Source: Verrucomicrobiales bacterium (GTDB taxonomy: Bacteria; Verrucomicrobiota; Verrucomicrobiia; Verrucomicrobiales; V1-33). Taken from it: DNA of 64,000 nt. This document shows positions 41,042 to 59,900 of the stretch, one piece after another. The translations under genes were made by a program, and so were the position numbers. The stretch covers positions 5,013-69,012 of the forward strand of contig JANOAV010000105.1 in the NCBI GenBank assembly GCA_031411295.1. The letters run 5' to 3'. The number at the start of each line of letters is the position of its first letter. The first letter of the stretch is position 1. The notes beneath the pieces are model-generated. The model was not told the DNA's origin. It did no database searches and worked only from the letters and a program-made list of their open reading frames with translations.

Positions 41042-41082
41042 TCCCTGTCGCACCCATGCCTACAAGGCACGCTCTACCCAAG

Positions 41083-41526: not shown

Positions 41527-41538
41527 GAGGACACCTCC

Positions 41539-42561
41539 CTAGCTGCGCTTCCTTCGATACCCCCAGTAACCCAAGAGGACAATGCAGGCGGCAGCAACGG
41601 CAGTCAGGGACTGGAGCTTATGTTTACCCCACACCATTCTTGGCGGGTAGGCACTGGCAAGGTGGCTGCCTGGTGCAATAATACTGCGGATTAGTGCGGC
41701 TTGGGGCGCGATCCGGGTAGCCCCGCACCACATGGGGGAGGGGTGTTCCTGGAGCGCCCCGACCTCGCGAAACGTCTCGCCTAGCACACCCCGCCACATC
41801 TGGCGTCCGTCGTGAATGGCGGCCCAGAATGAGTCAGTGCCTGATGCGGTAAAGGAATATTGCGTTTCCTTCCCTCCCACCGAGGGGTCAACGTCGAAAT
41901 GAATTCCTGCCAAGCGCCAGTTGCCGGCTTGATCCTGCAGGAGCAGTCCGCCCCCGCTGTCACCGGATGCCAGCGTGCCTTCGTCCAGTCCCGCAGCTTG
42001 ATCCCAGGACCACACGAGGAGTGATCCGAGGTCTTCGCCTGCCGCAAAATATTCTTCGACTTGATTCGTGCCCCAACTGAGTTTCCCATCAGATTCGCCC
42101 CACCTCCATCCGGGCTTGGTTCCGTTAGGTAGCAAAATTTCCTGTCCACGGGCAGCTCCACGGCCCATCAGAAAGCAGGGTTGTTTCAACTCCGAGCCAC
42201 TACTCTCATCCCACAGTTCCATCCATTGGGGAAACTCCCCCTCCACGCGGAACAGCACCAAGTCTGTCCCCGGAATGCCGGCCGATTCCACCGCCGCATA
42301 GCTTTTGCCATTCAAATCAAAGAAGCTGCCAACATTCACTCCCAGGTGCAATGCGGTGATAAACCAGTGGGGGCTGATGCAGACCCCGGTGCCCCCTTGC
42401 CAATGACCATGACTGGCCCAAGCCTTCTGCAACGTGGGATCCGCCGGAGTGCCAAAATTCCTGCCCTCTTCTCGAAACACGATGATCGCCCGGGCATCGC
42501 CCAGGAGGGCGAGGGCGAGCAAGCCAAGGGCAAGGCGGCTTAAATGAAGTCGCAGTAGCAT
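41539..42561 (-). CDS. Secreted trypsin-like (S1) serine protease with C-terminal membrane anchor
   Basis: Signal peptide (ARA/II); catalytic triad motifs ITALH, TDLVL, GDSGGG; C-terminal TM helix followed by RRKRS; its ATG overlaps the PKS-NRPS stop (TAATG). Confidence 0.88.
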   Translation of the reverse strand: MLLRLHLSRLALGLLALALLGDARAIIVFREEGRNFGTPADPTLQKAWASHGHWQGGTGVCISPHWFITALHLGVNVGSFFDLNGKSYAAVESAGIPGTDLVLFRVEGEFPQWMELWDESSGSELKQPCFLMGRGAARGQEILLPNGTKPGWRWGESDGKLSWGTNQVEEYFAAGEDLGSLLVWSWDQAAGLDEGTLASGDSGGGLLLQDQAGNWRLAGIHFDVDPSVGGKETQYSFTASGTDSFWAAIHDGRQMWRGVLGETFREVGALQEHPSPMWCGATRIAPQAALIRSIIAPGSHLASAYPPRMVWGKHKLQSLTAVAAACIVLLGYWGYRRKRS

Positions 42562-45500
42562 TAGGTAAGCATCGGGCTGGGGGTGAGCTTGGCGAGGTGG
42601 CGACGCAGCTTGTCTGCCATCTGACTAACATTTGGCTCATCGAAAATCTCCAAATGATTACCCGGGACGCGATCTATGATGAGCCGATCCACCAAACTGG
42701 TCCAGCCATAATCCTCGCTGAGGTCAAACTTATCGCTGACTTCACTGCTGCGGAAGAGCAGCATCGTGGTGGCCAGCGGTGCCGCTCGATAGCCCTCGGC
42801 CGCCTGGATATTGGCTTCCCGAATCTGCACATAACGCAGACGTTCTTCCTCCGCCCTGACCCCTTGCTTGAGCAAACGCCGCGCAGAAGCAGTCTCGGCG
42901 TCGGTGCGGAACCGCTGAATCAAGCCGGAACTAAAACGGCCTCCGAGTTGCAATAACTTGCCCGCCACATTGTGGGATTGACTCGTGCGCCAATTCACGC
43001 TGATGCGCTCACCGAGCGTGTATTCGCGAGCCGGCACATTGGGGTTTTCCGTATCAAACATCACTAGTAAGGGAACCTCCTCACCAGCCGCCAACAGTTG
43101 CTGCGCCATTTCATAGGCCACTAAACCGCCATAACTGTAGCCGCCGAGCACGTAGGGGCCGCGGCGTTGGGCCAGTCTGATTAAGGCCACATACTCTGCC
43201 GCGACCGCCGGAATCGGGATCGATTCGATGGGCAGCGATTCATCGATCAAGGCGGGCGATTCCACAGTGTAGAGTTGCCGCTCCGTCCCGAAGCGCGAAA
43301 GCAACCCCTTGTAAAACAGCGCTCCGCCATCTCCGCCATGAATTCCGAAGAACGCCAGTTCATCCCCCGTTGGTTGAATACAGGTTAGGGGGGAGACCTT
43401 GCCGCGGGTGGCATTGGCCGTCGTTTCGATCACCGTGGCCAATTTCTCCAAGGTGGGGGCGCGGAACAAGGTGCCCAGCGGGAGGGCGACGCGGAAGTCA
43501 GTCCGGATACGAGTGAACAAACGCAGGCCGTGGAGCGAGGTGCCGCCGATTTCGAAGAAATTATCGTCGCTGCTTACGGCGGTGAGCCGAAGGATGTCCT
43601 GCCAAATTAACGCCAGTCGTTGCTCGAAATCCGTGCGCGGAGCCACATAGGCTCGTGCCCGGTCGGTGGGAGGCACAACCATGTCAGGTTGTGGGGCGGA
43701 GAGTGCTTGGCGGTTCAGTTTGCCGTTTTCGGTGAGCGGGAAACTCTCCATGCAGACGTAAGCAGAGGGGACCATGTAGTCCGGCAGTTTCGCTTGCAGG
43801 TGCTTGCGGAGGGCTTCGCTGGTGGGGAGATCTTTGTCATACACCACAAACGCGGCCAGATACGTTTCGCCATCCGCATTCTGCTGGGGCAGAACGGCGG
43901 CATCGCGCACGTCCGGATGGGTTAAGAGCACGGATTCGATTTCCCCTAGCTCAATGCGGTAGCCCCGCAGTTTGACCTGCTGATCCGCCCGCCCCAGATA
44001 CTCCAACTCGCGCCCTGGACGGAAACGTGCCAGATCTCCCGTGCGATACAATTTCGCTCCGGGCCGACCAGTCAAATGATCAGGCACGAAGCGCTCCGCC
44101 GTAAGTTCTGGGCGGTTTAGATAGCCTTGAGCCAGACCATCGCCACCAACATACATTTCCCCCACGCAACCAAATGGCACCGGTTCACCTGCTGTGTCCA
44201 AGAGATATATTTGCAGATCAGGAATGGGCACCCCGATCATGCTCCCGCCTTTCATATCTGCTGTAGTTAGTGGACGATAGGTCACATGCACGGTAGTTTC
44301 AGTAATGCCATACATGTTGACCAACTGCGGTGATTGATCTCCATGGCGGGCGAACCAGGGCTGCAAGGCCGCCATTTCCAGCGCCTCACCACCGAAGATG
44401 ACGTAGCGCAGACTAAGCGCCGGAGCCTGCGACAAGGTTGCTTCTGCCGCCATCAGTTGTTTGAAGGCACTCGGCGTTTGATTCAGCACGGTGACCTTTT
44501 CTGTCGCCAGCAATTCATAAAATTCATCAGGGGAGCGGGCCAAATTAAACGGCACGACGACCAAGCGACCGCCATACAGCAGCGCACCCCAGATTTCCCA
44601 GACGCTAAAGTCAAAGGCTGCGCTGTGGAAGAGGGTCCAAACGTCACGGGCGTTGAAGTTGAACCACGCCTCCGTGCTCTGCATTAAGCGCGTCACGTTC
44701 CGATGAGTGATCCGGCAGCCCTTCGGCTGGCCGGTCGATCCACTGGTGTAAATCACATACGCGATGTCATCCGGAATGATGCTGGTTAGAGGATTTGTGG
44801 TCGGGAAATCTGTTAGCGCGTCATCGATGAACAACGTGCGTCCAGCGTGTTCGGGCAGTTGTTTCAGCAGACTGCGCTGCGCCACTAGCACCGGGGCGGC
44901 AGCGTCTTCCAGCAGGAAGGCCAGACGCGCGGCAGGGTAGCTCAGATCCATGGGGACATAGGCGGCTCCCGCTTTCAAGATCCCCAGAATGGCCACCACT
45001 AAAGGATTGGCGCGCTCCAGGCACAGCCCCACCAGCATGCCGGGGCGCACCCCGGCCTCAATCAAGGCGTGGGCCAGTTGGTTGGCGCGGGCGTTCACTT
45101 CACCATAGGTCAGGTTTTGCGTGCCGCAGGTCAGCGCCAAGGCCTGTGGATGCTGCTGGGCTTGTTGTTCGAACCAAGCATGCAGACAGAGATCTCCTCC
45201 AGCCTTGCGGCCATGAGCGTTGAAGCCGTGGATCAGTTCGCTGCGTTGCCCGGTGGTGAGCATGGGAAGCCGGGATATTTCCATTTCTGGATGGGCGCAG
45301 AGTGACTGTAACAAACGTTGATAGTGCAGCATCCATTGCTGGATTGTCTCCTCGCGGAATAGTTCGGAGCGCGCAGCACATAACAGTCGCAGATCCTCTG
45401 CCCCCTGATAAGCATAGAGGGTCAGCGGGAAGTTGGACCGCAACTTGGGATTCAATATCGTCGTGAAGGCCAGTCCGCCTGCTGCGATCGTGTCAGCCCC

Positions 45501-48500
45501 CATCGATTCCAAACTAAAGGCCGTCGGCACGAACTGCTGGCGCTCCTGGCCGCTGATGCCCTTGAGTTCATTCAGAATTTCTCCTAACGTGCAGTCTTGA
45601 TGGTCCATCGCCTCCATCACTTGTTGCCGGACCTGTTCCAGGAAGCTCAGCGCCTTGGTCGATCCATGGACCTTGGCCCGCAGCGGGAGAAACTGCACGC
45701 AATGCCCCACCAGTCCGGCTTGCCCCGTGGCCGCTTGTCCGGCAAAGGGCACGCCCACCAGAAAATCATCCTGCCCTGTCAGTCGATGCAGCAAGACTTC
45801 CCACGCTCCCAGCATGATTTGAAATACCGTGAGCCGTCGCTCCTTCGCGATGTGTTTGACCTGATCCAACAATCCCGCAGGCAGGGTTAAGGCCACGGAG
45901 AAAGTATCGTAGCCCGGTGCCTTGCGGGTAAAGTCTGTCGGCAGCGCGAGCGGAACTGGAGGGTTGGCCAAGCGCTGCAACCAATAGGCCTTCGAGGCCG
46001 CGCCCTCGCCCGAGGCTCGCTGGATGCGCTCATCAGCGGCATAGGCATCGAAGCGTGGGGCCGGAGTCGCGAATGGCTTCTGCTGCTGCGTCAATTCATA
46101 CGCTTGCGGTAACTCTTGGAGGAGCACTCCGAACGACCAGCCATCACAAATGATGTGATGTGCCGTTAGGATTAAATGATGTTTCTGCTCCCCCAGCTTG
46201 ATTAAAGCCGCCCGCAACATGGGGCCGTGGTTCAGCGCGAACGGGGTTAGGAAATGTTGCCGCCGCACTTCCTTCAGTTGCAGTTCCTGTTCTGCGCCAC
46301 TGAGTTCGCCTAGCTCCAGCAACGGCAGCGGGAGGCGCACATTGGCGGCAATGTGCATCCCTTCCCCGTCTTCATCAAACGATGCTCTGAGGGCCACGTG
46401 GCGTTCCAACAGCATACCCAAAGCCTGATGCAGCGTTTCGGGCTGCAATTCCCCGTTGATCTCCACCGTCACAGATTCATGGCAAGCCGTGGAGGCTTGC
46501 TCGTCGAGCGATGATGCCAGCAGCAATTCCTGCTGCGCTGCGGTCAGCGGGGCATAGGACGGCATGAAAGTGGCCACCACTTCCAAGGAGGCGGGTTTCG
46601 AAGCTGCCGCTGCCATGTCTTGCTGAGTGGGGAGGAATCCTCCCGCTTGCAGTGCGCGCACACTTTCTTTAAAGGCGGCTATCACTTGCGCGATCTCTTC
46701 ATCGGTGTGCTGGGTGCAGAGGAAACTGCTGCGCCCCGCCCACACATGGATGCCGCGTAGGCGCAGATGGAGAAATAGCAGTTCCGTGTATTTCAACTGC
46801 GGAGCAAAATTTACAAAATAGTAGCTGCTGAAGTGGGTTAGCCGAATCGGCACTCCAGCATCCTGACAAAAGGTATTGATGTCGCCCACGAACTTCGTCG
46901 TGCGTTCATTCATCCACGTTTGGAGTTGCGGCCCCTTTTCTTTGAGATGCAGCAACACGGCCTTGGCCGCCGCCAGTGCCAACGGATGGCGCACAAAGGT
47001 GCCGGCAAAAAAAGTGACCCCAACTTCCGGTCCAGAGTCATCCCCATACTGCCACTGACCGCCATCCAGTGCGTCCAGGAATTTCCGCTTCCCGGCCACC
47101 ACGCCAATGGGGAAGCCGCCGCCGATAATTTTGCCATAGGTGGCAATGTCTGCTTCAATGCCAAAATAACCCGCGGCCCCCCGGGGATGGATGCGGAAGC
47201 CGTTCACCACTTCGTCCAAGACTAACGCGATTCCATGTTCTGCGGTAATCGCCCGCAGGGTGTGGAGGAACTCCGCTGGTTGCAGTTCGGGACGTCGGCT
47301 CTGGACCGTTTCCACCAGCACCGCAGCAATTTCATGCGCATGGTCGCGAATGATCTCCAGGGACTCCGGGTTGTCATAATCCAATACCAAAATGTTCTCT
47401 CCCACGGCCTCGGGAATCCCCGGTGCGATGGGGATGGTGTGCAGTTGCTCGCCCTCCATCATCGGTCGCACTAGCACCTCGTCCATGATGCCGTGGTAGG
47501 CCCCGGCAAACATCACGATCTTATCGCGACCGGTCACGGTGCGGGACGTGCGAATGGCCGCCATCAAGGCTTCGCTGCCGGTATTGCAGAAGCTCACGCG
47601 CTCATGTCCGGTGAATTCGAGAAACAAAGTGGCTACTTCGCCCACCAGCGGATTGGTTGGTCCAATCTCGATTCCCTTCTCCAACTGCGCCTGCACCGCA
47701 TCCATCACAAAGGACGCGCGATGGCCGAGGAAGCCAACACCGAAGCCTTGGGTGATGTCGATGTATTCATTGCCATCCACATCCCAAATCCGACCGCCCT
47801 GAGAGCGATCCACAATCAGCGGATAGACCGCTTCTTTCCACAAATGATTGAATCCAGCGACTGCGCGCGGATCAGCAAAATGGTGGCGATGCTCCTGCGT
47901 GAAGGCCTTCGAGCCCTTGGTTTTGGCGGTATAGGCCGCCAGTAACTCATCCAAGTGAGCGCGTTGAGTTTCCGTCAGCGATCCATCCTTGGCCGTTTGC
48001 AACGGACGGAACGGTCCGAAGGCAATCCGCTTGTCAGAGTTCACGTTCTGACTCATGGCGCGCACGGAGAACTTCTGCACCGCACCAACGCCCGGTGCCA
48101 GCAGCTCCCGCCGCAAATCCCCAATCGCTTGTTCGATGATGGCCAGACGATCTCCCGCAGGAGCAGGGACGCTGCTTGGAAGCAATGACAGTGGCTGACT
48201 TGGGGCTGTTGGTTGGAATTTTTCCGGTGGCAATTGGGCATCGAGATAGTCTGCCAACGATTGCAATGAGCCCAGTTCCTCCGCGATCTGGCGGAAGGTA
48301 ATTTTAACGCCGAAATGCTTCCGCAGGAAAATGCTCGCCTGAGTTAGGAACAGGGAGTCGAAACCGAGATCAAAGAATGAAGCTGCCGCAGGCGCACTGC
48401 TGAGATCAATGCCGCTGGCCTTGTGTAACTGGGTTCGCAGTTCGCTTAACAAGTGTTCTGGCCGGGAGATGCTCCCCACAACAAGGAGTGGGGGACTCAA

Positions 48501-51236
48501 CGCCGGAGCACTTAAGCCTGCGGTCACGATCCCATTTCCTGGCAAGAGCGCACTCTCACCGACCCGGGTGGTTCCTTCCGGCAACGAGCGAGCTGCGCAG
48601 AAACGTTCACGCTGGAACGGATACCCCGGCAACGTCACGCGCTGACGGATTTCCCCTGCATGCAGCGCGGACCAGTCAATCTCCACGCCCCCCAGCCACA
48701 ATCGGCCGAGCGTGCGCATGAGTTCTGCGGACTCACCCGCGCCTGCGGCCTTGGCGGGTGGGAGTGAACTTAGGATTGTGGTGGCGGTGGCGGCTTGCGG
48801 ATGTTGTCGCGCCAACGTAGCGAGCGCCTGACCGGGGCCCACTTCAAGGAGCGCTATCGGGCCGTCCCCTAACAGTGAACCGACCCCCTCGGCAAACCGC
48901 ACGGTTTCCCGAATATGGCGCAAATAATATCCAGGCGAAGTCGCCTCCTCATCCGTGATGCGTCGGCCGGTCACGTTGGAGAGATACGGGATCTGTGGTG
49001 GATGCAACGTGATGCCATCAAAGGCCCTGCGGAAGCGATCCAGGGCTGGTTCCATCATCGAGGAGTGAAAGGCGTGACTAGTGACCAAACGCCGACAACT
49101 AATTTCCTCGCGTGCGAAAACAGATTCCATGGCCGTGATCTGATCCAGTGATCCGGACACCACCATCAAGTTAGGACTATTGACCGCCGCCAGATCCACG
49201 CCTGGCAGGAGGAGCGCCCGCACTTTAATTTCGTCTGCCCGCACGCCGAGCATGGCCCCGGGCTCGCATTCCCAGAGACAGCGTCCCCGTGCCACCATCA
49301 GTTTCAGAGCATCCGGCAAACTCATGACCCCTGCCAGACAAGCCGCCACATACTCGCCAGCGCTGTGGCCGATCATGACCGAGGGCTGAACTCCCCAGGC
49401 CATCAGTAGTTTCGCCAAGGCATATTCAGTGACGAACAAGGCGGGTTGGGTGTAGCGTGTCTCTGCCAACTGAAGTTCTGCCGTGGCGGAATTTTCTGGC
49501 GCTGGATTGAGCAGCGTTCTTAAATCAATCTCCAGCAGCGGTTGCAGGATCTCACAGCATTCTTGCAGTGCCTCCCGAAACACCGCCTCCTCCTTTGCCA
49601 AAGCTGCGCCCATGCCAATGTGTTGTGATCCTTGCCCTGCAAAGAGAAATGCCACGGGCAAGCGCCGTTCCCGTTGCACTTGCGTGAAATAATCTTTCCC
49701 TGCCGCCCCAGTCAGCGCGGTCTTGGCCTCTTCCACCGTGCTGGCAGCCAGAGCCAGACGATGGTTGAAGAGTTGCCGCCCGATTTGCAAAGTGAGCGCA
49801 ACATCGGCTAGGTTCGTTTGTCCGGAGAGGTGCTGTGCCAAGTCCTGCCGCATCTGTTCCAGCGCTGGTGCAGTCTTCGCTGACAGCACCAAGATTTGAG
49901 AACTGCATCCGCTATCGCTCGTGGGAAGTTCCGGAGCTTCCTCCAGCACGACATGCGCATTGGTGCCGCCGACGCCAAAGGAACTAACTCCTGCCCGCCG
50001 CGGATGGTCCAGACGTTTCCACTCCGTCGTTTTGCGATTAACGTAAAATGGACTATCTTCCAATCCTAACGTCGGATTGGGGGTCGTGAAATGGAGGCTG
50101 GCCGGGATCGTCCGATGATAGAGCGACAACGCCGTTTTGATCAGTCCCGTCACTCCCGCAGCGGCATCCAGATGGCCAAAATTTGATTTAGCACTGCCGA
50201 TCGCACAGAAGCCAGTGCGTGTGCAACCACCCGCGCGGAAGGCTTCGGTGAGTCCGGCTATTTCAATGGGATCCCCAATGGGCGTAGCGGTGCCGTGCGC
50301 TTCAATATAGTCAATCGTATCGGGTTCAATCGCGCCTAACGCTTGCGCCAGACTGATGACTTCGGCGTGGCCGCCCACGCTGGGAGCCGTGAAACTCGAT
50401 TTCTCCGAGCCATCGTTATTGATCGCTGCGCCCTTGATCACCGCATAAATGCGATCTCCGTCCCGCACCGCGTCCTCGATCCGCTTCAATACCACCACGC
50501 CCAGTCCATTGCTGAAAATAGTGCCTTGCGCTCTCTCATCAAAGGATCGGCAATGACCATCCGGGGAGACAATGCCTCCTTCTTGATAAAGATAACCCCG
50601 CTCTTGGGGGAACTTGACACTAACGCCCCCCGCTAACGCGACATCACACTGGAAAGTCTGCAAACCACTAACCGCCTGGCAAATCGCCACCAGGGAGGTG
50701 GCGCAGGCCGTATAGATATTGAGGGCTGGACCGCGGAGATTGAGTTTGTAAGCCACGCGCGTCGCGAGGTAATCCTTTTCATTACCGATCATGACCAGTT
50801 CCGGGCCGGCTTGTTGGCGGATTTCTGGGTTGAACTCCACCTGGCTTTGGAAATAACTATTGCTGGACATCCCCGCATACACTCCGATGCAACTAGTGCT
50901 CCGAGCGGGATCGACTGCGGCATCTTCCAGCGCATGATAGCATGCTTCGAGGAATAACCGTTGCTGAGGATCTGTCACCTCCGCCTCCTTCGGGCTCATG
51001 CCGAAGAAGCTGGCATCGAACCATTCGGGTTGATGCAGGATGCCTCGACGCGGGACGTAATCAGGATCGTTCGCCGCTTCCTCAGGGCTTAGCTCGTCTT
51101 TAGCAAGCGTCGTGATGCCTTCTTCGGCCTGCACGAGGCGCTGCCAGAAAGCCTGCAGATCGTCCGCTCCAGGAAATTTACCAGCAAGGCCAACAATGGC
51201 GATGCCTTCGAGTGCAGTGGTAGATGGGTCGTTCAT
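42561..51236 (-). CDS. Hybrid type I PKS-NRPS: KS-AT-ACP-aminotransferase(class III)-C-A(Thr)-PCP-TE
   Basis: KS: TACATS, EAHGT, KSNFGH. AT: GHSAGE, HAFH (malonyl). ACP: LGFDSL. PLP lysine: TYGKIIGGG. C: HHIICDG. A: YTSGSTG, code DFWNIGMV. PCP: IGGTSL. TE: GYSYG. Start ATG 51236 is 7 bp after the upstream stop. Confidence 0.95.
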   Translation of the reverse strand: MNDPSTTALEGIAIVGLAGKFPGADDLQAFWQRLVQAEEGITTLAKDELSPEEAANDPDYVPRRGILHQPEWFDASFFGMSPKEAEVTDPQQRLFLEACYHALEDAAVDPARSTSCIGVYAGMSSNSYFQSQVEFNPEIRQQAGPELVMIGNEKDYLATRVAYKLNLRGPALNIYTACATSLVAICQAVSGLQTFQCDVALAGGVSVKFPQERGYLYQEGGIVSPDGHCRSFDERAQGTIFSNGLGVVVLKRIEDAVRDGDRIYAVIKGAAINNDGSEKSSFTAPSVGGHAEVISLAQALGAIEPDTIDYIEAHGTATPIGDPIEIAGLTEAFRAGGCTRTGFCAIGSAKSNFGHLDAAAGVTGLIKTALSLYHRTIPASLHFTTPNPTLGLEDSPFYVNRKTTEWKRLDHPRRAGVSSFGVGGTNAHVVLEEAPELPTSDSGCSSQILVLSAKTAPALEQMRQDLAQHLSGQTNLADVALTLQIGRQLFNHRLALAASTVEEAKTALTGAAGKDYFTQVQRERRLPVAFLFAGQGSQHIGMGAALAKEEAVFREALQECCEILQPLLEIDLRTLLNPAPENSATAELQLAETRYTQPALFVTEYALAKLLMAWGVQPSVMIGHSAGEYVAACLAGVMSLPDALKLMVARGRCLWECEPGAMLGVRADEIKVRALLLPGVDLAAVNSPNLMVVSGSLDQITAMESVFAREEISCRRLVTSHAFHSSMMEPALDRFRRAFDGITLHPPQIPYLSNVTGRRITDEEATSPGYYLRHIRETVRFAEGVGSLLGDGPIALLEVGPGQALATLARQHPQAATATTILSSLPPAKAAGAGESAELMRTLGRLWLGGVEIDWSALHAGEIRQRVTLPGYPFQRERFCAARSLPEGTTRVGESALLPGNGIVTAGLSAPALSPPLLVVGSISRPEHLLSELRTQLHKASGIDLSSAPAAASFFDLGFDSLFLTQASIFLRKHFGVKITFRQIAEELGSLQSLADYLDAQLPPEKFQPTAPSQPLSLLPSSVPAPAGDRLAIIEQAIGDLRRELLAPGVGAVQKFSVRAMSQNVNSDKRIAFGPFRPLQTAKDGSLTETQRAHLDELLAAYTAKTKGSKAFTQEHRHHFADPRAVAGFNHLWKEAVYPLIVDRSQGGRIWDVDGNEYIDITQGFGVGFLGHRASFVMDAVQAQLEKGIEIGPTNPLVGEVATLFLEFTGHERVSFCNTGSEALMAAIRTSRTVTGRDKIVMFAGAYHGIMDEVLVRPMMEGEQLHTIPIAPGIPEAVGENILVLDYDNPESLEIIRDHAHEIAAVLVETVQSRRPELQPAEFLHTLRAITAEHGIALVLDEVVNGFRIHPRGAAGYFGIEADIATYGKIIGGGFPIGVVAGKRKFLDALDGGQWQYGDDSGPEVGVTFFAGTFVRHPLALAAAKAVLLHLKEKGPQLQTWMNERTTKFVGDINTFCQDAGVPIRLTHFSSYYFVNFAPQLKYTELLFLHLRLRGIHVWAGRSSFLCTQHTDEEIAQVIAAFKESVRALQAGGFLPTQQDMAAAASKPASLEVVATFMPSYAPLTAAQQELLLASSLDEQASTACHESVTVEINGELQPETLHQALGMLLERHVALRASFDEDGEGMHIAANVRLPLPLLELGELSGAEQELQLKEVRRQHFLTPFALNHGPMLRAALIKLGEQKHHLILTAHHIICDGWSFGVLLQELPQAYELTQQQKPFATPAPRFDAYAADERIQRASGEGAASKAYWLQRLANPPVPLALPTDFTRKAPGYDTFSVALTLPAGLLDQVKHIAKERRLTVFQIMLGAWEVLLHRLTGQDDFLVGVPFAGQAATGQAGLVGHCVQFLPLRAKVHGSTKALSFLEQVRQQVMEAMDHQDCTLGEILNELKGISGQERQQFVPTAFSLESMGADTIAAGGLAFTTILNPKLRSNFPLTLYAYQGAEDLRLLCAARSELFREETIQQWMLHYQRLLQSLCAHPEMEISRLPMLTTGQRSELIHGFNAHGRKAGGDLCLHAWFEQQAQQHPQALALTCGTQNLTYGEVNARANQLAHALIEAGVRPGMLVGLCLERANPLVVAILGILKAGAAYVPMDLSYPAARLAFLLEDAAAPVLVAQRSLLKQLPEHAGRTLFIDDALTDFPTTNPLTSIIPDDIAYVIYTSGSTGQPKGCRITHRNVTRLMQSTEAWFNFNARDVWTLFHSAAFDFSVWEIWGALLYGGRLVVVPFNLARSPDEFYELLATEKVTVLNQTPSAFKQLMAAEATLSQAPALSLRYVIFGGEALEMAALQPWFARHGDQSPQLVNMYGITETTVHVTYRPLTTADMKGGSMIGVPIPDLQIYLLDTAGEPVPFGCVGEMYVGGDGLAQGYLNRPELTAERFVPDHLTGRPGAKLYRTGDLARFRPGRELEYLGRADQQVKLRGYRIELGEIESVLLTHPDVRDAAVLPQQNADGETYLAAFVVYDKDLPTSEALRKHLQAKLPDYMVPSAYVCMESFPLTENGKLNRQALSAPQPDMVVPPTDRARAYVAPRTDFEQRLALIWQDILRLTAVSSDDNFFEIGGTSLHGLRLFTRIRTDFRVALPLGTLFRAPTLEKLATVIETTANATRGKVSPLTCIQPTGDELAFFGIHGGDGGALFYKGLLSRFGTERQLYTVESPALIDESLPIESIPIPAVAAEYVALIRLAQRRGPYVLGGYSYGGLVAYEMAQQLLAAGEEVPLLVMFDTENPNVPAREYTLGERISVNWRTSQSHNVAGKLLQLGGRFSSGLIQRFRTDAETASARRLLKQGVRAEEERLRYVQIREANIQAAEGYRAAPLATTMLLFRSSEVSDKFDLSEDYGWTSLVDRLIIDRVPGNHLEIFDEPNVSQMADKLRRHLAKLTPSPMLT

Positions 51237-51243
51237 GGGGAAG

Positions 51244-54200
51244 TTAGGAAAGCGGTGGGAGTCCGCGCGCCCGTGCCATGGCGGCTCGGGCAGCGGTCGC
51301 CCGGGCGCGGGCTTGCGTCGCCATGTTCTGGGCAGCGGTGATGGGGAGGGCGGCTGGTTTCGCGGGGTGCAGTGGTGGGGCGGTTTCCAGCAGCCCCGCC
51401 AGCGAGGCAATCGTCGGATGCGAGAAAACCTGCACAATCGAGAGGGTCAAGCCCAACTCACTGCGCAGTCGCTGATGCACGCGTATCATCAGTAATGATT
51501 GCCCCCCAAGATCGAAGAAATTTTCGTGGATCGAAATGTCAGTGAGGCCAAAGGCGCGTTGCCAGATCTCGGCCATGGCCTTTTCCAAAGGCGTGCGCGG
51601 AGCGACACGTTCGGCGGTTCGCGTCACTGGCAGGGTGGTCGGGGCCATGCCCGCTGGCAGTTGGCAGGAGGCCATGATGGTGGACAATGAATGCTGCTCT
51701 GGGCCGATGAGCTGCAGGAGGAGTTGCTTCCATTCCTCCAGCAGCAAGCGGGCCCGGGCGGGGGAACACGAGGCCGCTTGATGGGCTAATAATATTTCGT
51801 AGGTCGTCCCCGGCGTAATCATTAGCGTCAGCGGGTAGTTCGTATGCACTGGCCCGACGAACTCCGACAACGCGACCTCGGGGCCAAAGGTCATGACCCC
51901 ATGTTGCGTCTGGAAGTTTTGGAACACCAGCAAACTGTCGAACAAGCGTCGATTCCAGGGGATCTCACTCCATTCCTGCATTTGCGCGATGCTGGAATGC
52001 TGATGCCCCGTCAGTGTAAAAAGCTGGGCCTGAACTTCCTTGATAAAATCTTTGGAGCGCTGATCCGGCCTGACTTGCAGGCGGACCGGCAGGTTGTTGA
52101 TAAAGGGGCCGACGATGCGTTCCACGCCCGCTAGTTCGCTGGGACGACCATTGCTGGCAGTGCCGAACATCACTTCCGTGACATCGGCACAACGTGCCAA
52201 GAGCAGTGCCCAAGCGGCATGGAGCACCGCCCCGTTGGTAACTTGGTGCGCCCGAGCAAAACGTGTGAGCCGATCCACCACATCAACGCCAAGCACGATC
52301 ACGGTTTCGGAGAATTTCCGGCCGACCCCTTGATGCTGTAAGGTTTCGAGCGGCACTGGGGTTGGTGCCGTAAGGCCACGAAGTTCCGCGCGCCAGAAAT
52401 CAGCCTCAGCTTCTTGCGGTCTGGCCTGCAGCCATGCCAAATATTCCCGATACGCGGGTGCCACCGGCAGCGGGGTGCTTGAGGTCATGAGCGACGAAAC
52501 CTCCTGGAAGACAATTGGCCAGGACCAGCCATCCATCAGGATTTCCGGCACGCACCATAGGAATCGCCAGGTGGTGTCCGTCAAACGGATCAGCGCGAAA
52601 CGTGAGAGGGGAGCGATTGTCAAATCATTCGGTCGCGCTGCGTCTTGCAGAAGAAATTCCGTCCACTTTGCAGCGTGCGTTTCCGCCGCCTGTCCGCGCC
52701 AATCGTCGAGGTGCCAGTAGGGTTGCAGTCCATTCCTCACGACTTGCACGGGCTGGTTCAATTGATGGGAATGAAAGGAGGTGCGCAGCAACCCATGGCG
52801 CTGCAAGACTTGCTCCCAGGCGGCCTGGAAACGTGGCACATCGAGTGGCCCCTCCAACCGGCTGTGCCATTGGTCATAGCCGGCATTGGTTTTGGCTACG
52901 GCGGCTCCATAATACAATTCTTGAATCGGAGAGAGCGGCCAGACATCCGCCACCTCTCCTGGCGCTTGTTGGAGCTTGGCTAGTTCAACCGGGGAAAGTT
53001 TCACCAGCGTGAAATCGTTGACCTCCGGAGGCGCAGCCAATCCCTGGCTGGCCCGTGTGATGATTTCCCGCAAGGCGCTGGCGAAAGCTTCCACTAATGG
53101 TTGCACGCGAGCTGTAGCAAGGCGATCGGCGTTATACTTCCACTCGAGTTGGAATTTCTCCTCGCGAATAAAGCAATCGATCTCATGCTCGTGCAGCCGC
53201 ATGGCGGAGAAATGATGCCACGGTCCGGTGGCTTCAGGGGCGAGCGTGAAGAGAGTGGATTCGGCTGTCAGTTGATCGAGTCGGCCCCAGAAGTTAAAAG
53301 CAATTTCAATCTCGCTAGGCGGCAAAGGAGAAGTGTCTGCATACCGCAGGAAACCATAGCCAGCACCATTTTGCGGCAGGCTCTGGAGTTGGTCCCGCAC
53401 GTGTCGCATGACGGCAAGGATGTCATTACTTTCCGGCGGCAAGGTGAGGCCAAGTGGAAAGAGTGCGGTAAACCAACCCACGGTCCGGCTGAGATCTGCG
53501 CTGCCGAAAAGTTCCTCCCGTCCATGCGCCTCTAAATGCAGCCAAACTTGATCACGCCCCAACTGCCGATGACAGGCCAAGAGGAAGGCACTGAGCAGCG
53601 CGTCTTGGATGCGCGTGCGATAAACGTTGGGAACCTTTTGCAGCAGCGTCGTTGTTTCCTCAACGGTTAGTTCAAAGCGCAAGGTGGTCGCGCTCCCTTC
53701 AGTGTTAGTGTGGCTGCGATTAGGCTCCAGCAATGGCGTGATGGTTCCCGGCAACCGCTGTGCCCACCAGGTCTTCTCGGCCATGGCCGCTGGAGAGCGT
53801 GACCAAAGCTCGCCCAACGCCGCCGCATCCGCAAAGGGCGTAGGCACGGCTTCCAGCGCGGCACCATGATAGGCTGCTTCAAGGTCGTGCAGCAGAATAT
53901 TCCACGACACGCCATCCACCGCCAAGTGATGCGCGACGCACAGTAAGCGCCCCGGACGATCCTCGCCCAAGTCCGCATACACCAAGCGCAGCAGCGGGCC
54001 ATGCTCATAGTTCAAGCGCGATTGCGCAGACTCGCTGAGTTTGAGGATTTTCTGCGCCAATTTGCCATTGGCGAAACCATTTAAATCATGGCATTCCAAG
54101 GTCTCCAAGACCTCCAAAGCGGAAACCTTCTGCTGCCACCCCGAGGCACCTTTGGTGAATCTGAGCCTCAGCGCCTGATGCTGAGCAAGCAGCGCAGCTA

Positions 54201-57200
54201 CGGCGCGACGCAGCTTAGGCACCTCCAGCCGTTCATTGACCGACAGTAGGAAAGCTTGATTCCAGTGGTGACTAGCCTGGAGTTCCTGGGCAAAGAACCA
54301 GCGCTGAATGGGCAGCAGTGGAATGTTCTCGGTCGAAGCATTCAGGGCGGATTGGGTCGCTTGCCCCAAGCCTTCGATCTTTGCCAGTTGGGCGATGGTT
54401 TGATGTTCGAACAACTGCCGCGGCGTGAAGGATAACCCTACTTTGCGAGCTTGGGCAATCATGTGAATGCTCAAAATGGAATCACCACCGAGGGCAAAGA
54501 AGTTATCGTTCACACCTACACGGTCCACCTTTAGGACCTTCGCCCAGATGCGTGCTAACTGCGTTTCCGCTGCGGTAGCAGGCTCCACGAATGCTTGCGT
54601 CAGGAGTTCGCGCGGGCCGCTGGGAGCTGGTAATGCCACGCGATCCAGCTTGCCGTTGCTGGTGAGAGGAAAATGCTCCAAGACCACGAAAGCCGCCGGC
54701 ACCATGTAATCTGGCAACTTAATCTGGAGATGCGAGCGGAGCGACTCAACGCTGGGTCGCTCGGCTTTGGGGACGAGATAGGCCACAAGTCGCTTCTCCC
54801 CGGGATGATCTTCGCGCGCCAGCACCGCCACTTCCTGCACTTGCGGATGAATTGTTAGGATGGATTCGATTTCTCCCAATTCAATGCGGAAGCCACGAAT
54901 TTTAACCTGTTGATCGATCCGCCCCAGATACTCTACGTCACGGCCGGGGAGGAAGCGAGCGAGGTCGCCCGTGCGGTAAAGCCGGGCGTTAGGCAACGTG
55001 GAAAATGGATTGGCAATGAAACGCTGTGCAGTCAGTTCCGGACGCTGCAAGTAACCCTGAGCAAGCCCGGCCCCGCCGACGAATAATTCCCCGGGCACGC
55101 CTAACGGCACCGGTTGGAGGTGCGCATCGAGGATGTAGAGTTGGAGATCCGGGATCGGAATTCCGATCACGCTGCCCCCGTGGACGTCGGCGGCCGAGAT
55201 CGGGCGGTAGGTCACGTGCACCGTTGTTTCCGTGATGCCATACATATTCACCAGTTGAGGCGTCCGGTCGCCATGACGCTCGAACCATGGTTGCAGGCTT
55301 TGCATTTCCAAGGCTTCGCCTCCGAAGATGACGTAGCGTAGAGCCAGATCCAGGGGCTGGGTGGCGGCGGCCTCTGCGGCCATGAGTTGACGGAAAGCGC
55401 TGGGGGTTTGATTCAGGACGGTGACTTGCTCTGCTGCCAGGAGTCGATAAAAATCCTCGGGCGAACGTGAGGTGTGGTAAGGCACGATCAACAGGCGACC
55501 ACCATACAGCAGCGCGCCCCAGATCTCCCAAACGCTGAAGTCAAAAGCCACACTGTGAAATAGCGTCCAAACATCCGTGCTATCAAATCCAAACCAAGCC
55601 TCGGTGCTTTGGAACAAGCGCGCCACGTTGCGATGTGTGACGATGCACCCCTTGGGTCGCCCCGTAGAGCCGCTCGTGAAAATCACATAAGCCGCATGGT
55701 CGGGGGTGACTTCGACGGATGGATCATTGGAGTTTCCACCGTGGTAGATTTGCAGGTCATCCACATACAGATTCTTGCAACCGTGCCGTGGCAGGCGGGC
55801 GCTGAGCTTGCGTTGCGTTAGCAGCACCGGAGCCGCCGCATCTTCCAGCATGAAACTCAGACGTTCCGCCGGATAACTCAGATCGATGGGAACGTAGGCG
55901 GCACCACATTTCAGTATCGCCAGCAAAGCCACGATCAAATCCAGGCTGCGTTCCACACACACGCCCACCAGCATGCCCGGGGTCACCTGCTGACCCTGCA
56001 AATAATGCGCCAGTTGGTTCGCCCGTTGGTTGGTCTGGGCATACGTCCAGTTCGTGCCCTCACAAGTAAGCGCAATGTCGTTTGGCGTGCGGGCCGCAAT
56101 CCCTTCGAACCAATGGTGCAGGCAAATGTCTCCACCGAATTCGCGCTGCCCCTGATGGAAATCCTCCACCAGTTCGCGACGTGCTTCGCTGGTAAGGATT
56201 TGCAATTCGCTCAGGGGCTTTTCAGGATGGTCGCAGAGCGATTCAATCAGCATTTCGTAATGTTGCAGCCATCTCTCCGCGGTGGCTTCCGTGAGCACTG
56301 CGCAGTTGTATTCCAACACCAACGCATAACCTTCAGGCAACGGAGTGGTCTCCAAGACCAGATCGAATTTGGCCCCTCCGTTGTGGATGCTAACGGGCTC
56401 GCAGGCAAGGCCGGGCACGCTGAAATCCGCCCCCGCAGAATCCTGGAGGACAAACAAATGCTGGATCAGCGGGGGATGGCTGAGATCGCGCGGCAGGTTC
56501 AGGGAATCGACCAAATTCTCGAAAGGCAGATCCTGATGATTCAAGGCGTTCACTACCGTCGCCCGAGCGGACGCAAGGAAATCCAGACCTGACTGCTCAG
56601 GGTGGCATGACGTCCGGAGAATGACGGTATTGACAAAACAGCCCATCACATTCTGCACCGCTGAATGCGTGCGCCCCGCCACTGGGGTGCCGATGACGAT
56701 GTCGGTGGCTCCGCTTAGTCGATGCAGGAGCACTTGGAAGGCCCCGGCCAGGATGACGAAGGGCGTGGTTTGCACTCGTTGCGCCAGGGCTTCGATGCGT
56801 TTCCGGAGATCGAGTCTTAATCCCCGCGCCACCACATCGCCCACATAATTTCGCACCGGAGGGTGCGGGCGATCCGTCGGCAGTTGGAGGATCGGTGGGG
56901 CTCCGCGCATTTGCTCTTTCCAATAAGCCAGGTCTGCCGTGAAGTCCCCGGTCTCCAGACGGCGGTTGATCCATGAGGCAAAGCCGGCACACGTGGCCGC
57001 GAGTTGCGGCCAGACTGGCTGACGCTGACGCAAGGCGGCGTTGTAGGCCAGCGCCAAATCCTGATAGAATAAGGTGACCGACCAACCATCCGAGATGATG
57101 TGGTGGAAGGTAACCACGAGCAAATGCTCCTCGGGCGAAATCTGATAGAGCAAGCAGCGACACAGCGGACCTTCCGCCAGACTAAACGGGATGCGGGCGT

Positions 57201-59595
57201 CAGCCGTGGCGAGTTCCAATGCGGCCTCCAAGTTGCCCACCTGGCTCACCTGCCAGTGCAGTGGGGTTTCCGGATGCAATTTCTGACTTGGACGACCGTC
57301 AATGCTGGGGAAGGTGGCGCGCAGCACGCTGTGACGTTGGACCACGCTGCGCAGGGCCGCGGCTAGGAAATCCTGTCGCAGTGGACCTTGCAGGCGACGT
57401 GCCGTGGGGATGTTATAGGCCGCGCGATTCCCGATTAGTTGATCGAGGAACCAGAGCCGTTGCTTCGGTGGCGACAATTCCGTCTCCTCCTGCGCCAGCA
57501 GATTCAGCTCGGAGGCGTCAATCCGCGGCAAGTTAGGCTGTTGCAATTTTGCGGCTAGCAGCGCCACGGTTGGTTGGGTAAATAACAGCGTGAGGGGCAG
57601 TCGGACGTTGAATTGATCCGCTATGAGGGAAACAATGCGCGTTGCGGCCAGCGATTGGCCACCAAGGTCGGTGAACCGATCCATCACGCCGATAGGATAG
57701 ACTTGAAGCACTTCCTCCCAGATCTGCACGAGGCGCGACTCCATTTCGTCGCGCGGGGCGACGAGTTCCGTGGCACTGACAGGGCGGGCCCGTTTGCGGG
57801 CGCTGGCGACGGCTTTGGCGATGTTGGCCGCCGATTGAAATTGGTTGGCGATGGCCGCGAAATCCGGCCGTGTCACTGGGGCGGCTTCATTGAATGGCGC
57901 TGAATCCGCAGCGGGAACCGGAAGGGTGACGGCATCCGCATTAAATTTCACCGCTCTGGCTCGCGTGACGGGGAAATGATAGTTGCCGTCCTTGAAGCCG
58001 TCCGGGCAGACTGCTTCCAGGAAATTTGCCATCGGTTGATTCCGTGCCGTGGCTTTGAACGGCAGCACAATGCCGAGGCTTTGGCGCGCAGCGGCTTCGT
58101 CGCCTAACTGCGCCAGCATCCGATGCTCGACTCCCTTTCCCAGCACGCGACACGACAGCAGAAAATTTTCCACAAAACAAAGCGGACCGCGCGTGCGGTA
58201 GATTAGCAAACCCACATCGCCATAGTCACCGAAGCGATCCTTCACATGCAGCAGCAAGGCATGCGTGTCCGCCGCCTGCAGCGCATTGGCGACCTCGGCC
58301 TCCGTGCGGCGGACTCCAGTGGCGTTGAACTGATTCGTGCGTTGAGTGAGTTGAGATACCCGCGGATAGTCGAAGAGATTCGGGATGCGAAATGTTAGCT
58401 GCAATTCCAGCCCGTCGATAAAATCTGCGAACGAGGTGGCTTGTGCCGCCGCTTGCGTGCGCTGGGCGTTGACCTGCATCAACTCCGTGCGTCGGCCATC
58501 CTCCTTGGTGGCAGCATGGATGTCCAGTGCCCAGTGGTGATTGATGAGCGGGAGGATCTCATTTTCCTGAGCCGGGAGCGTGATGGTCGTGAGGTCCGGA
58601 AATGCCGCCGCCACCTCGGCACATTCGATGGGGTTATCATCGATGAAGACCACGGCATCCGGATGGATATTCCATTCGGAGAGCAACTCCCGCACGCTGC
58701 TGGATTTCGGTCGCCAGGAAATTTTCCAGCCCGCAAAATCCGCCTCTTGGAGGATCATTTCCGGTCGGGCCAAGGTTGCGCGAACGTCGCGCACTTCATT
58801 TTTACTGGCTAGGCCGAGCAAAGCCCCTTGTTGCTTCAAGTGCAGTAAATGCCGCTGGAAGGCTAAGCGCGCTGACCCCAGGGTGATTCCACCAGCGCCG
58901 ACTTCACCCACCACGCCACCCCACAGCGTCTGGTCCGCATCCACGATGACGGCCTTGCAGGGAGCTTGCAGCAACGTTCGCGCCCGGCGCATCAAGGCTG
59001 CCCCCAGCGCGGCAAAGTATTCCGGGGCATAGGGCACATGGCCTTGCCGGTCACTTTCTGGATCATGGATCTGGCTGACGGGATACCACACCTCCACCTC
59101 CTCCGCCGTGATCACACTGAAGCCAGGCAACTGGCGCAACGTGCGCCCACACTCGTCGTAGGCCAAATGCAATGACTGCTGCAAGGCGGGTTCCAATTTC
59201 GCCAGATCGCTCAGCGGACAGAGCATTACAATCGTCGGCCGATGTGCCTGCCCCGCAAAGATCTGCATGGCATCCAGCAACTCCAAGGTCACCAGCCTAA
59301 CCTGATCCAAGCGACCTTCTGTGGCGCTGGTGAATTCGCTCCCCCCCTGCCGCAAGGCATCTTCCAGCCGCAGCAGGAAAAAATTTACGCCCGGAACATC
59401 ACTGCGCGCGGGACTGGCTGGATTGAGTAACTCTTGAAAAAGTTGATTGTAACCCGCCAGCGAAATTTCCGCCGGATCCAACTGCAAGCGCGGCAACCAG
59501 AAAGCAAAATGCTCCTCCAACGGCTCCACCGTAAACGAAGCTGCCACCCGGAACATCCGGGGTGCAGGGGGATCGTTTGCTAGTGCCGTGGACAT
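51244..59595 (-). CDS. NRPS with FkbH-like loading domain: FkbH-ACP-C-A(Thr)-PCP-E-C*(no catalytic His)-PCP (start 59595 or 59610)
   Basis: FkbH: DADQTLWGG, VFIDDNP.E, QLTQRTNQFN, DRFGDYG, LSCRVLG. Carriers: LGGQSL, LGGDSI, LGGQSL. C1: HHIISDG. A code DFWNIGMV. E: HHLAVDGVSW, EAHGRE, RTVGWFT. Final C: PEILMDGWS. Confidence 0.95.
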   Translation of the reverse strand: MSTALANDPPAPRMFRVAASFTVEPLEEHFAFWLPRLQLDPAEISLAGYNQLFQELLNPASPARSDVPGVNFFLLRLEDALRQGGSEFTSATEGRLDQVRLVTLELLDAMQIFAGQAHRPTIVMLCPLSDLAKLEPALQQSLHLAYDECGRTLRQLPGFSVITAEEVEVWYPVSQIHDPESDRQGHVPYAPEYFAALGAALMRRARTLLQAPCKAVIVDADQTLWGGVVGEVGAGGITLGSARLAFQRHLLHLKQQGALLGLASKNEVRDVRATLARPEMILQEADFAGWKISWRPKSSSVRELLSEWNIHPDAVVFIDDNPIECAEVAAAFPDLTTITLPAQENEILPLINHHWALDIHAATKEDGRRTELMQVNAQRTQAAAQATSFADFIDGLELQLTFRIPNLFDYPRVSQLTQRTNQFNATGVRRTEAEVANALQAADTHALLLHVKDRFGDYGDVGLLIYRTRGPLCFVENFLLSCRVLGKGVEHRMLAQLGDEAAARQSLGIVLPFKATARNQPMANFLEAVCPDGFKDGNYHFPVTRARAVKFNADAVTLPVPAADSAPFNEAAPVTRPDFAAIANQFQSAANIAKAVASARKRARPVSATELVAPRDEMESRLVQIWEEVLQVYPIGVMDRFTDLGGQSLAATRIVSLIADQFNVRLPLTLLFTQPTVALLAAKLQQPNLPRIDASELNLLAQEETELSPPKQRLWFLDQLIGNRAAYNIPTARRLQGPLRQDFLAAALRSVVQRHSVLRATFPSIDGRPSQKLHPETPLHWQVSQVGNLEAALELATADARIPFSLAEGPLCRCLLYQISPEEHLLVVTFHHIISDGWSVTLFYQDLALAYNAALRQRQPVWPQLAATCAGFASWINRRLETGDFTADLAYWKEQMRGAPPILQLPTDRPHPPVRNYVGDVVARGLRLDLRKRIEALAQRVQTTPFVILAGAFQVLLHRLSGATDIVIGTPVAGRTHSAVQNVMGCFVNTVILRTSCHPEQSGLDFLASARATVVNALNHQDLPFENLVDSLNLPRDLSHPPLIQHLFVLQDSAGADFSVPGLACEPVSIHNGGAKFDLVLETTPLPEGYALVLEYNCAVLTEATAERWLQHYEMLIESLCDHPEKPLSELQILTSEARRELVEDFHQGQREFGGDICLHHWFEGIAARTPNDIALTCEGTNWTYAQTNQRANQLAHYLQGQQVTPGMLVGVCVERSLDLIVALLAILKCGAAYVPIDLSYPAERLSFMLEDAAAPVLLTQRKLSARLPRHGCKNLYVDDLQIYHGGNSNDPSVEVTPDHAAYVIFTSGSTGRPKGCIVTHRNVARLFQSTEAWFGFDSTDVWTLFHSVAFDFSVWEIWGALLYGGRLLIVPYHTSRSPEDFYRLLAAEQVTVLNQTPSAFRQLMAAEAAATQPLDLALRYVIFGGEALEMQSLQPWFERHGDRTPQLVNMYGITETTVHVTYRPISAADVHGGSVIGIPIPDLQLYILDAHLQPVPLGVPGELFVGGAGLAQGYLQRPELTAQRFIANPFSTLPNARLYRTGDLARFLPGRDVEYLGRIDQQVKIRGFRIELGEIESILTIHPQVQEVAVLAREDHPGEKRLVAYLVPKAERPSVESLRSHLQIKLPDYMVPAAFVVLEHFPLTSNGKLDRVALPAPSGPRELLTQAFVEPATAAETQLARIWAKVLKVDRVGVNDNFFALGGDSILSIHMIAQARKVGLSFTPRQLFEHQTIAQLAKIEGLGQATQSALNASTENIPLLPIQRWFFAQELQASHHWNQAFLLSVNERLEVPKLRRAVAALLAQHQALRLRFTKGASGWQQKVSALEVLETLECHDLNGFANGKLAQKILKLSESAQSRLNYEHGPLLRLVYADLGEDRPGRLLCVAHHLAVDGVSWNILLHDLEAAYHGAALEAVPTPFADAAALGELWSRSPAAMAEKTWWAQRLPGTITPLLEPNRSHTNTEGSATTLRFELTVEETTTLLQKVPNVYRTRIQDALLSAFLLACHRQLGRDQVWLHLEAHGREELFGSADLSRTVGWFTALFPLGLTLPPESNDILAVMRHVRDQLQSLPQNGAGYGFLRYADTSPLPPSEIEIAFNFWGRLDQLTAESTLFTLAPEATGPWHHFSAMRLHEHEIDCFIREEKFQLEWKYNADRLATARVQPLVEAFASALREIITRASQGLAAPPEVNDFTLVKLSPVELAKLQQAPGEVADVWPLSPIQELYYGAAVAKTNAGYDQWHSRLEGPLDVPRFQAAWEQVLQRHGLLRTSFHSHQLNQPVQVVRNGLQPYWHLDDWRGQAAETHAAKWTEFLLQDAARPNDLTIAPLSRFALIRLTDTTWRFLWCVPEILMDGWSWPIVFQEVSSLMTSSTPLPVAPAYREYLAWLQARPQEAEADFWRAELRGLTAPTPVPLETLQHQGVGRKFSETVIVLGVDVVDRLTRFARAHQVTNGAVLHAAWALLLARCADVTEVMFGTASNGRPSELAGVERIVGPFINNLPVRLQVRPDQRSKDFIKEVQAQLFTLTGHQHSSIAQMQEWSEIPWNRRLFDSLLVFQNFQTQHGVMTFGPEVALSEFVGPVHTNYPLTLMITPGTTYEILLAHQAASCSPARARLLLEEWKQLLLQLIGPEQHSLSTIMASCQLPAGMAPTTLPVTRTAERVAPRTPLEKAMAEIWQRAFGLTDISIHENFFDLGGQSLLMIRVHQRLRSELGLTLSIVQVFSHPTIASLAGLLETAPPLHPAKPAALPITAAQNMATQARARATAARAAMARARGLPPLS

Positions 59596-59900
59596 ATCAG
59601 GAAATGGCATCAACCCCTTCGAGCAAGTTTCGCACAAACACAGAACTCCGTTCACACGACAAGGCGGCGTGCAGATAGCTCCTTAGCATATGAGTTGGCA
59701 TCTCAAGAAGGTCCATGGTGGTCGGTTGGCTAGAAAGGGGCATTTCTAGAAATTGTGGTATTTATCCTAAATCATATTTACCCCACAAGCAACAAATATC
59801 AACCAATCAAAAATTTCTGCACCCGCTTTCTTTTAAAAACGCGCCGCATTCGCAGATTTGAGAGCCTGTCTGAGGGGGATGTGTTTCCAGCCGCAGGGCA

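Follow-up and report, generated by a model that had tools for sequence, protein, structure and literature searches.

The window analysed here is a stretch of 64,000 nucleotides from a Verrucomicrobiales bacterium (assembly GCA_031411295.1, contig JANOAV010000105.1, positions 5,013 to 69,012), and it carries a nonribosomal peptide synthetase (NRPS) and polyketide synthase (PKS) operon that ends in a serine protease gene. The protease, which is the sole non-synthetase gene of this three-gene operon, is a new and divergent S1A member of a large extracellular family that has no name. Only a small subfamily of that family is tied to an NRPS-PKS gene cluster. Comparison across genomes makes it likely that the protease is a dispensable accessory of the operon and not an obligatory activator. 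The best explanation as a whole, in which an exported and tethered S1A protease is an optional add-on to the operon and plausibly acts on the metabolite, has in our judgment an even chance of being correct. The following features of the window are needed first.

41539..42561, minus strand: protease gene, encoding an S1A chymotrypsin-fold serine endopeptidase preprotein (340 amino acids plus stop, ATG start)
42559..42563, minus strand: TAATG junction, made of the megasynthase TAA and the protease ATG, with one base in common (the final A of TAA)
42561..51437, minus strand: hybrid PKS-NRPS (the megasynthase), KS-AT-(ACP)-aminotransferase (AmT)-C-A-PCP-TE, 2958 amino acids, aminotransferase of class III (Pfam)
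51244..59655, minus strand: NRPS, FkbH-PCP-C-A-PCP-E-C*-PCP, 2803 amino acids (Pfam and NCBIfam, scanned in pieces)

Junction of the protease gene with the megasynthase

The protease open reading frame (ORF) begins with an ATG at 42561, which is the first ATG, GTG or TTG of the open frame, and stops at 41539-41541. The minus-strand letters at the junction read CTT ACC TAA TGC TAC, and the stop belongs to the 2958-amino-acid megasynthase ORF. An earlier note on this DNA had claimed that the protease ATG overlaps the megasynthase stop, and this is confirmed, with a 1-nucleotide overlap and co-oriented genes. The span given in that note, 41539..42563, holds a real gene, but the ORF itself reaches 42561, and the end at 42563 takes in the TAATG; the note also gave no strand, which is minus. 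Stop/start overlaps are frequent in operons; what lies above chance at this junction is the tight spacing, which is repeated in all four cluster-linked genomes. A promoter and terminator scan of 40400-43000 gave nothing exceeding shuffled expectation. A look-up of sequencing runs listed no RNA data set for the junction; the single run that contains every sampled word of the window carries the label freshwater sediment metagenome and may be where this DNA came from. Judging from the arrangement of the reading frames, the protease is probably translationally coupled to the megasynthase.

Beyond 59.7 kb the window contains small toxin-antitoxin-like ORFs only, and below 41.5 kb the genes converge; therefore, the operon consists of three genes. 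No transporter, exporter or further tailoring gene was found in the operon. The boundary upstream of the cluster is marked by an Unstab_antitox ORF (60330-60575, minus strand) and a PIN-domain ORF (61400-61822, plus strand).

Linkage of protease and cluster in related genomes

The occurrence of the protease was surveyed in 401 genomes of the order with a profile of the subfamily, where G000 is the genome of the window. The result was bimodal: five genomes (G000, G456, G471, G444 and G703) gave matches at E<=7e-117, and eleven others gave matches at about 1e-41 to 1e-45, which are paralogues. A sample of the phylum contained no further orthologue. The taxonomic family of G000 is represented by 38 genomes, four of which carry the orthologue. 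The loci are arranged as follows.

G000 (window): the protease ATG overlaps the TE stop by 1 nucleotide
G471, genus of G000: the same megasynthase, a 6-nucleotide gap, then the protease (orthologue at L051:7241-8305, minus strand)
G456, genus of G000, a Verrucomicrobiales metagenome-assembled genome (MAG): TE, a 4-nucleotide gap, a 313-amino-acid GT2, a 4-nucleotide overlap, then the protease (the last overlap being deduced from the 335-amino-acid protein P0003)
G703, a Phragmitibacter MAG of a different family: TE, a 313-amino-acid GT2, then the protease, with 4-nucleotide overlaps
G444, another genus of the family of G000: orthologue on a separate contig from the megasynthase, between DUF7133/HEAT genes and an ECF-sigma-like gene
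L002:6373-7314 and L003:9045-9986: GT2 genes of 313 amino acids between TE and protease in two relatives (G456 and G703)

The orthologue adjoins the megasynthase in the same orientation in four of the five genomes that bear it, across two families of the order, and this operon membership is preserved at 41-61% protein identity. The megasynthase was found in five of five orthologue-bearing genomes and in 95 of 401 overall, a comparison that does not amount to a formal test because related genomes are not independent. Among the paralogues, 0 of 40 loci had NRPS/PKS domains within 1.5-kb flanks, the lone match being an aminotransferase of 30% identity. Because the megasynthase is carried by all five genomes and none of the 40 paralogue loci is near such domains, the association of the protease with the cluster is real and subfamily-specific. 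Metagenome-contig scans with the subfamily profile and with P0002 found no relative.

The GT2s of G456 and G703 are 45% identical to each other; no GT2 orthologue was found in the G000 genome or at the G471 locus. L003 also carries, about 2 kb further downstream, genes for a TonB-dependent receptor and a PepSY_TM protein. On the contig of the G444 orthologue, no NRPS/PKS gene was found within the 20 kb examined. An ECF-type sigma-factor-like gene (Sigma70_r2; L052:3384-4151, minus strand) lies directly downstream of this unlinked orthologue.

Absence and decay of the protease

Identity of the AmT region across its 95 genomes is 36-82%, and the frames that contain it are mostly about 3000 amino acids long; the FkbH module occurs in 101 of the 401. 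The protease orthologue is missing from 90 of the 95 megasynthase-bearing genomes. The FkbH-to-AmT spacing is about 11.5 kb in G420 and G636, matching the architecture of the window. In G420, which has the same two-megasynthase architecture, the TE is followed by a PPTase gene that overlaps its stop. A PPTase gene also follows the TE in G408 and G711, and a Wzy_C-like gene follows it in G636. In G462, the TE is followed by no protease; a 267-amino-acid ORF with a non-significant transposase-like match (E 0.016) comes next, and then EF-G. A tblastn search downstream of the TE in G462, G444 (C160), G408, G711, G542, G420 and G636 found no remnant of the protease or the GT2.

A maximum-likelihood tree of the AmT region placed (G000, G456, G471) and (G703, G462) in one clade (support 88/88), with G462 as sister to G703 (100/99). 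G444 grouped with the PPTase-bearing G408 and G420. The protease has also decayed within the clade. The G471 orthologue reads TSAQMG and GDCGGG, so that the catalytic His has become Gln and the Ser has become Cys; the Ser position is Cys in P0013 and Arg in P0011. These three proteins form one clade (100/97) of full-length ORFs with 73-87% identity, their sister P0012 has an intact triad, and none of the remaining proteins in the set of 184 departs from the triad. From these substitutions, G471, P0011 and P0013 may be pseudo-proteases.

These comparisons bear directly on the proposal that the protease is an obligatory prodrug-activating peptidase, convergent with ClbP, XcnG and ZmaM, which removes a glyceroyl-D-amino-acid leader in the periplasm. 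The point of likeness is that those enzymes are periplasmic membrane-bound serine hydrolases encoded in NRPS-PKS clusters, and that an N-acyl-D-amino acid is built by the first module of such clusters. ClbP has the S12 triad Ser95/Lys98/Tyr186 and recognises N-acyl-D-Asn, according to PMC9889270. The window protease differs from ClbP in its S1A fold with a His/Asp/Ser triad, its single transmembrane (TM) helix and the glycerate-loading FkbH starter of its cluster, and it differs from ClbP-type systems in that most homologous clusters have no protease gene. The FkbH-PCP-C-A-PCP-E start module, the predicted anchorage in the periplasm and the tight coupling to the TE all agree with such a role. 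However, the protease is absent from homologous clusters, including that of the architecture-identical G420, was lost in G462 of the same clade, and has no catalytic His and Ser in the adjacent G471 copy. Its fold is S1A rather than S12, with one TM helix and not the three C-terminal helices of ClbP, and its operon has no exporter. In addition, chymotrypsin-fold enzymes prefer L-residues at P1, which is ill-suited to a D-amino-acid leader. Taken together, an obligatory activator of this kind is highly unlikely.

The earlier note had suggested prodrug activation or self-resistance, and it had named homologous clusters without the protease as the observation that would speak against this; the examination across genomes largely found exactly that. 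Neither role is borne out by the 90 of 95 clusters without an orthologue, the PPTase of G420, the loss in G462, the unlinked gene of G444 and the dead triad of G471. A prodrug or self-resistance role restricted to the protease-bearing clade is possible at low probability. The simplest history, one of capture, transfer between two families and repeated erosion, would be unlike that of an obligatory maturation enzyme.

Some points weigh against treating the protease as a mere accessory. The linkage rate rests on five genomes, the contigs of P0002, P0004-P0013 and P0015 standing outside the count. The retained operon membership and the apparent transfer from family to family could reflect a real dependency within the clade. 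The 95 megasynthase homologues also differ in architecture; many genomes from the families f74 and f2, for example, have FkbH fused directly into a single FkbH-to-TE protein of about 3650 amino acids, and the products of such clusters may be different ones that have no need of a protease.

The clade with the dead triad also bears on a possible partnership of product and protease. According to this explanation, a small beta-amino-acid peptide inhibits or regulates the protease, or the protease is a decoy or immunity protein, and co-expression sets the protease activity of the cell surface. AmT-containing modules lead to beta-amino acids, and certain protease inhibitors typically contain such residues. 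The protease is the only operon gene that is not a synthetase, and the retention of full-length proteins at 73-87% identity in G471, P0011 and P0013 fits binding better than catalysis. The genome, however, has no second, housekeeping copy that would need protection, and the assembly line ends in a TE, whereas a peptide aldehyde warhead would call for a terminal reductase. The partnership is very unlikely. The suggestion that the protease is the target of the product likewise found no support, as it is the sole family member in the 8.4-Mb genome. Because of this single copy, the protease is not a duplicated target, and a resistance gene of that type was ruled out.

Signal peptide, catalytic triad and membrane anchor

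The protease can be divided into the following parts.

42487..42561, minus strand: Sec signal peptide, residues 1-25, with predicted cleavage between ARA and II (sequence reading and homologue alignment)
41662..42486, minus strand: mature catalytic domain, residues 26-300 (invariant columns and mature-domain model)
42486, 42348, 42264 and 41958, minus strand: codon starts of Ile26, His72, Asp100 and Ser202, respectively
41617..41649, minus strand: juxtamembrane motif Y305-P-P-R-x-x-W-x-x-H-K315, subfamily-specific and conserved
41542..41616, minus strand: C-terminal TM helix L316-Y335 and basic tail RRKRS 336-340 (sequence reading and AlphaFold2)

The N-terminus, MLLRLHLSRLALGLLALALLGDARA followed by IIVF, has the layout of a classical Sec signal: its n-region is basic, its core is hydrophobic and its cleavage site is of the A-x-A kind. 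No lipobox Cys was found in it. The cleavage site matches the aligned A-x-A sites of the homologues, in which I or V comes directly after. The full-length AlphaFold2 model has a helix over residues 2-19. The columns of the triad, His72, Asp100 and Ser202 (the Ser of GDSGGG), are invariant or nearly so; over the 184 family proteins, the His is conserved in 183, the Asp in 184 and the Ser in 181. The first mature residue is V, I, L or M in 177 of the 184. At the other end, P307 is invariant and K315 nearly invariant in the juxtamembrane motif, and AlphaFold gave one helix over residues 313-339. The signal peptide, the intact triad and the C-terminal TM helix with a basic tail had all been noticed before and hold true, and the extracytoplasmic, anchored location stands as a prediction based on the signal peptide and the single C-terminal helix.

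Fold and probable activation by export

The mature-domain model covers residues 26-305 and was built with a 60-sequence alignment. It reached a pLDDT of 96.7 and a pTM of 0.93, with a pLDDT of 98 for the first ten residues, and in it the protease has the two beta barrels of the chymotrypsin fold. All of the top Foldseek matches are S1 proteases, led by the Spl proteases (SplB, SplF and SplD; S1B). Profile scores are low. PF00089 scored 20.5 bits against a cut-off of 20.6 and PF13365 scored 22.3 against 27.6, both below threshold, and an NCBIfam scan of the protease gave no match. A profile search of PDB sequences gave weak S1A matches at the His57 motif, the Ser195 motif and the C-terminal helix. 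The protein is only 15-18% identical to S1A enzymes such as Streptomyces griseus trypsin (1sgt, 1os8) and bovine chymotrypsin (4q2k). It also differs from them in having no propeptide, with the signal peptide abutting the Ile, in a family-specific insertion of about 55 residues (approximately 225-280) between the Ser195 strand and the last strand, in F222-D223 where S214-W215 is usual (aligned by eye), and in its C-terminal TM anchor. The identity of the protein as an S1A protease and its topology can be held with high confidence.

In each of the 50 rows listed, Ile26, with which the mature-domain model begins, is matched either to residue 16 of chymotrypsin or trypsin or to the residue that opens the mature chain. 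The full-length model, in which residues 21-30 are disordered, had hinted that the N-terminus is 5 residues too long (chymotrypsin residues 17-18 falling on model residues 32-33); the mature-domain model overturned this. The activation principle of S1A proteases is described in PMC3793935, which also states that full SplB activity depends on the exact N-terminus left by removal of the signal peptide. The Spl proteases resemble the window protease in structure, and SplB also in the N-terminus predicted for the window protease, one made by signal-peptide removal. They differ in that their N-terminal Glu takes part in a surface hydrogen-bond network, in contrast to a buried insertion of the Ile16 type, and they are soluble, Gram-positive and not tied to a biosynthetic cluster.

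Because the first mature residue is conserved, the mature-domain model aligns at that residue and SplB provides a precedent, we infer that signal peptidase would be the activating protease. At the predicted site, a cut between ARA and I would expose Ile26, which would come to lie at the Ile16 position beside Asp201 of GDSGGG. The C-terminal helix, with RRKRS on the cytoplasmic side, would keep the catalytic domain attached to the inner membrane at its periplasmic face. According to the model, the enzyme would be silent until it is exported.

Assembly line of the operon

The megasynthase ORF, with a listed TTG start, overlaps the upstream NRPS ORF, and its true start is probably downstream of the TTG. 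In the upstream NRPS, the FkbH domain is well above threshold (TIGR01686, 283 bits against a cut-off of 146.65), and the E-associated profile TIGR01720 scored 73.9 against 74.2. Both A domains carry FDFSVWE in the motif alignment, which presumably resembles the Stachelhaus code of Thr rather than that of Asn. The order of domains at the start, FkbH-PCP-C-A-PCP-E, fits the glyceroyl and D-amino-acid start that was proposed from the letters. The third C-like domain (51676-52860, minus strand) carries PEILMDG instead of the HHxxxDG motif seen in the other three C/E domains, and it is followed by a PCP without an A domain. As this motif suggests, it may be inactive or specialised, for example in modifying the upstream Thr-like residue. 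A literature search with incomplete coverage of subscription journals found neither a description of this verrucomicrobial cluster nor a product name for its FkbH/PKS-AmT-NRPS family.

The wider protease family

A word-indexed protein search gave 37 relatives, and an exhaustive profile search over 1.84 billion representatives gave 638 at E<=1e-30 and 1907 at E<=1e-10. A Pfam scan of 36 representatives found PEP-CTERM in 5, PKD in 4, dockerin in 2, FG-GAP in 1 and weak Trypsin/Trypsin_2 matches in 9, and 3 of the 36 passed the gathering threshold of PF00089. Neighbours in the ESM Atlas are trypsin-domain clusters of Verrucomicrobiota, some with PEP-CTERM.

The tail of the protease recalls the PEP-CTERM/exosortase surface proteins of Verrucomicrobiota. 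In a 26-sequence alignment, six distant members of the family end in PEP, a TM helix and a basic cluster at the position of the tail. The protease itself has the TM helix and basic cluster of this layout without the PEP motif, and PF07589 gave no match at E<=1. Two exosortase homologues are encoded in the genome. PEP-CTERM gave at least 50 matches there, and the protease locus is not among the matches listed. Of the genome's 26343 six-frame ORFs of 100 amino acids or more, only one has the YPPRxxWxxHK signature; therefore, the signature is not a many-to-one sorting signal there, and the idea of the tail as a shared sorting signal was ruled out. The tail is read as a family-specific membrane anchor derived from a sorting signal. 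Cleavage of the tail by an exosortase is possible.

The family raises the explanation that the protease is a passenger, an ordinary envelope or extracellular protease of PEP-CTERM type that acts on proteins, came to lie behind the TE and is inherited with the operon without a part in the chemistry of the metabolite. The large and typically extracellular family, with its PKD, dockerin and FG-GAP domains and PEP-CTERM tails, agrees with this. So do the G444 orthologue, which has the ECF-sigma-like gene at its side and no NRPS/PKS gene in the 20 kb examined, the repeated loss or inactivation of the cassette, and an operon without a transporter or other tailoring gene. A passenger would not explain why four of five orthologue genomes in two families keep the protease 0-6 nucleotides from the preceding operon gene, why all five have the megasynthase, or why the association is specific to the subfamily, with none of 40 paralogue loci near NRPS/PKS. 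The passenger explanation is conceivable, although we consider it doubtful.

Proposed history and role of the protease

Under the preferred explanation of an optional add-on, the protease would be co-transcribed with the three-gene FkbH-NRPS / PKS-AmT-NRPS operon. At the root of one small Verrucomicrobiales clade, a GT2-plus-protease cassette would have been gained behind the TE, at the position where related clusters carry the PPTase, and would have moved with the cluster between two families. Later erosion would have removed the GT2 in two lineages and the protease in one, and the catalytic residues would have been lost in one. The protease would then be an optional extracytoplasmic enzyme, co-expressed with the metabolite, that plausibly acts on the exported product, or on a glycosylated form, by trimming or inactivating it. 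That it acts on the metabolite at all is a tentative proposal, more doubtful than its accessory nature.

A more specific version can be hypothesized. GT2 and protease may together form a post-export tailoring module, in which an S1A enzyme dedicated to an NRPS-PKS metabolite is switched on by signal-peptide removal and unmasks or destroys a glyceroyl-capped, possibly glycosylated product at the periplasmic face. Such a module would be functionally convergent with the colibactin-type S12 peptidases, and the dead-triad clade would have re-used the protein for binding. This version is improbable. A literature search of incomplete coverage did not find an S1 protease described as an NRPS/PKS maturation enzyme; if the post-export tailoring reading is true, the window protease would be the first chymotrypsin-fold (S1A) enzyme to serve an NRPS-PKS metabolite specifically.

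Other features of the window

3836-6154, minus strand: 772-amino-acid ORF with MurC-like Mur ligase domains fused to MurB domains, an apparent fused peptidoglycan-precursor enzyme
6420-15188, plus strand: 2922-amino-acid protein with PA14, CotH, Laminin_G_3, Fn3-associated and two Lamin-tail domains, a giant surface or secreted protein and not a synthetase
15458-22231, plus strand: co-oriented block of a MoxR-type AAA ATPase, a DUF58 gene, an ABC ATPase and several unannotated ORFs

Significance

The protease is a caution for genome mining, as comparison with relatives shows that a textbook-looking maturation protease inside a cluster is an optional accessory. The FkbH-PKS-aminotransferase-NRPS cluster family itself is found in roughly one in four of the genomes sampled from the order. 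The large family of bacterial S1A proteases to which the window protease belongs appears to be activated through cleavage of the signal peptide. If the protease acts on the metabolite, it would represent a new enzyme fold for post-export tailoring.

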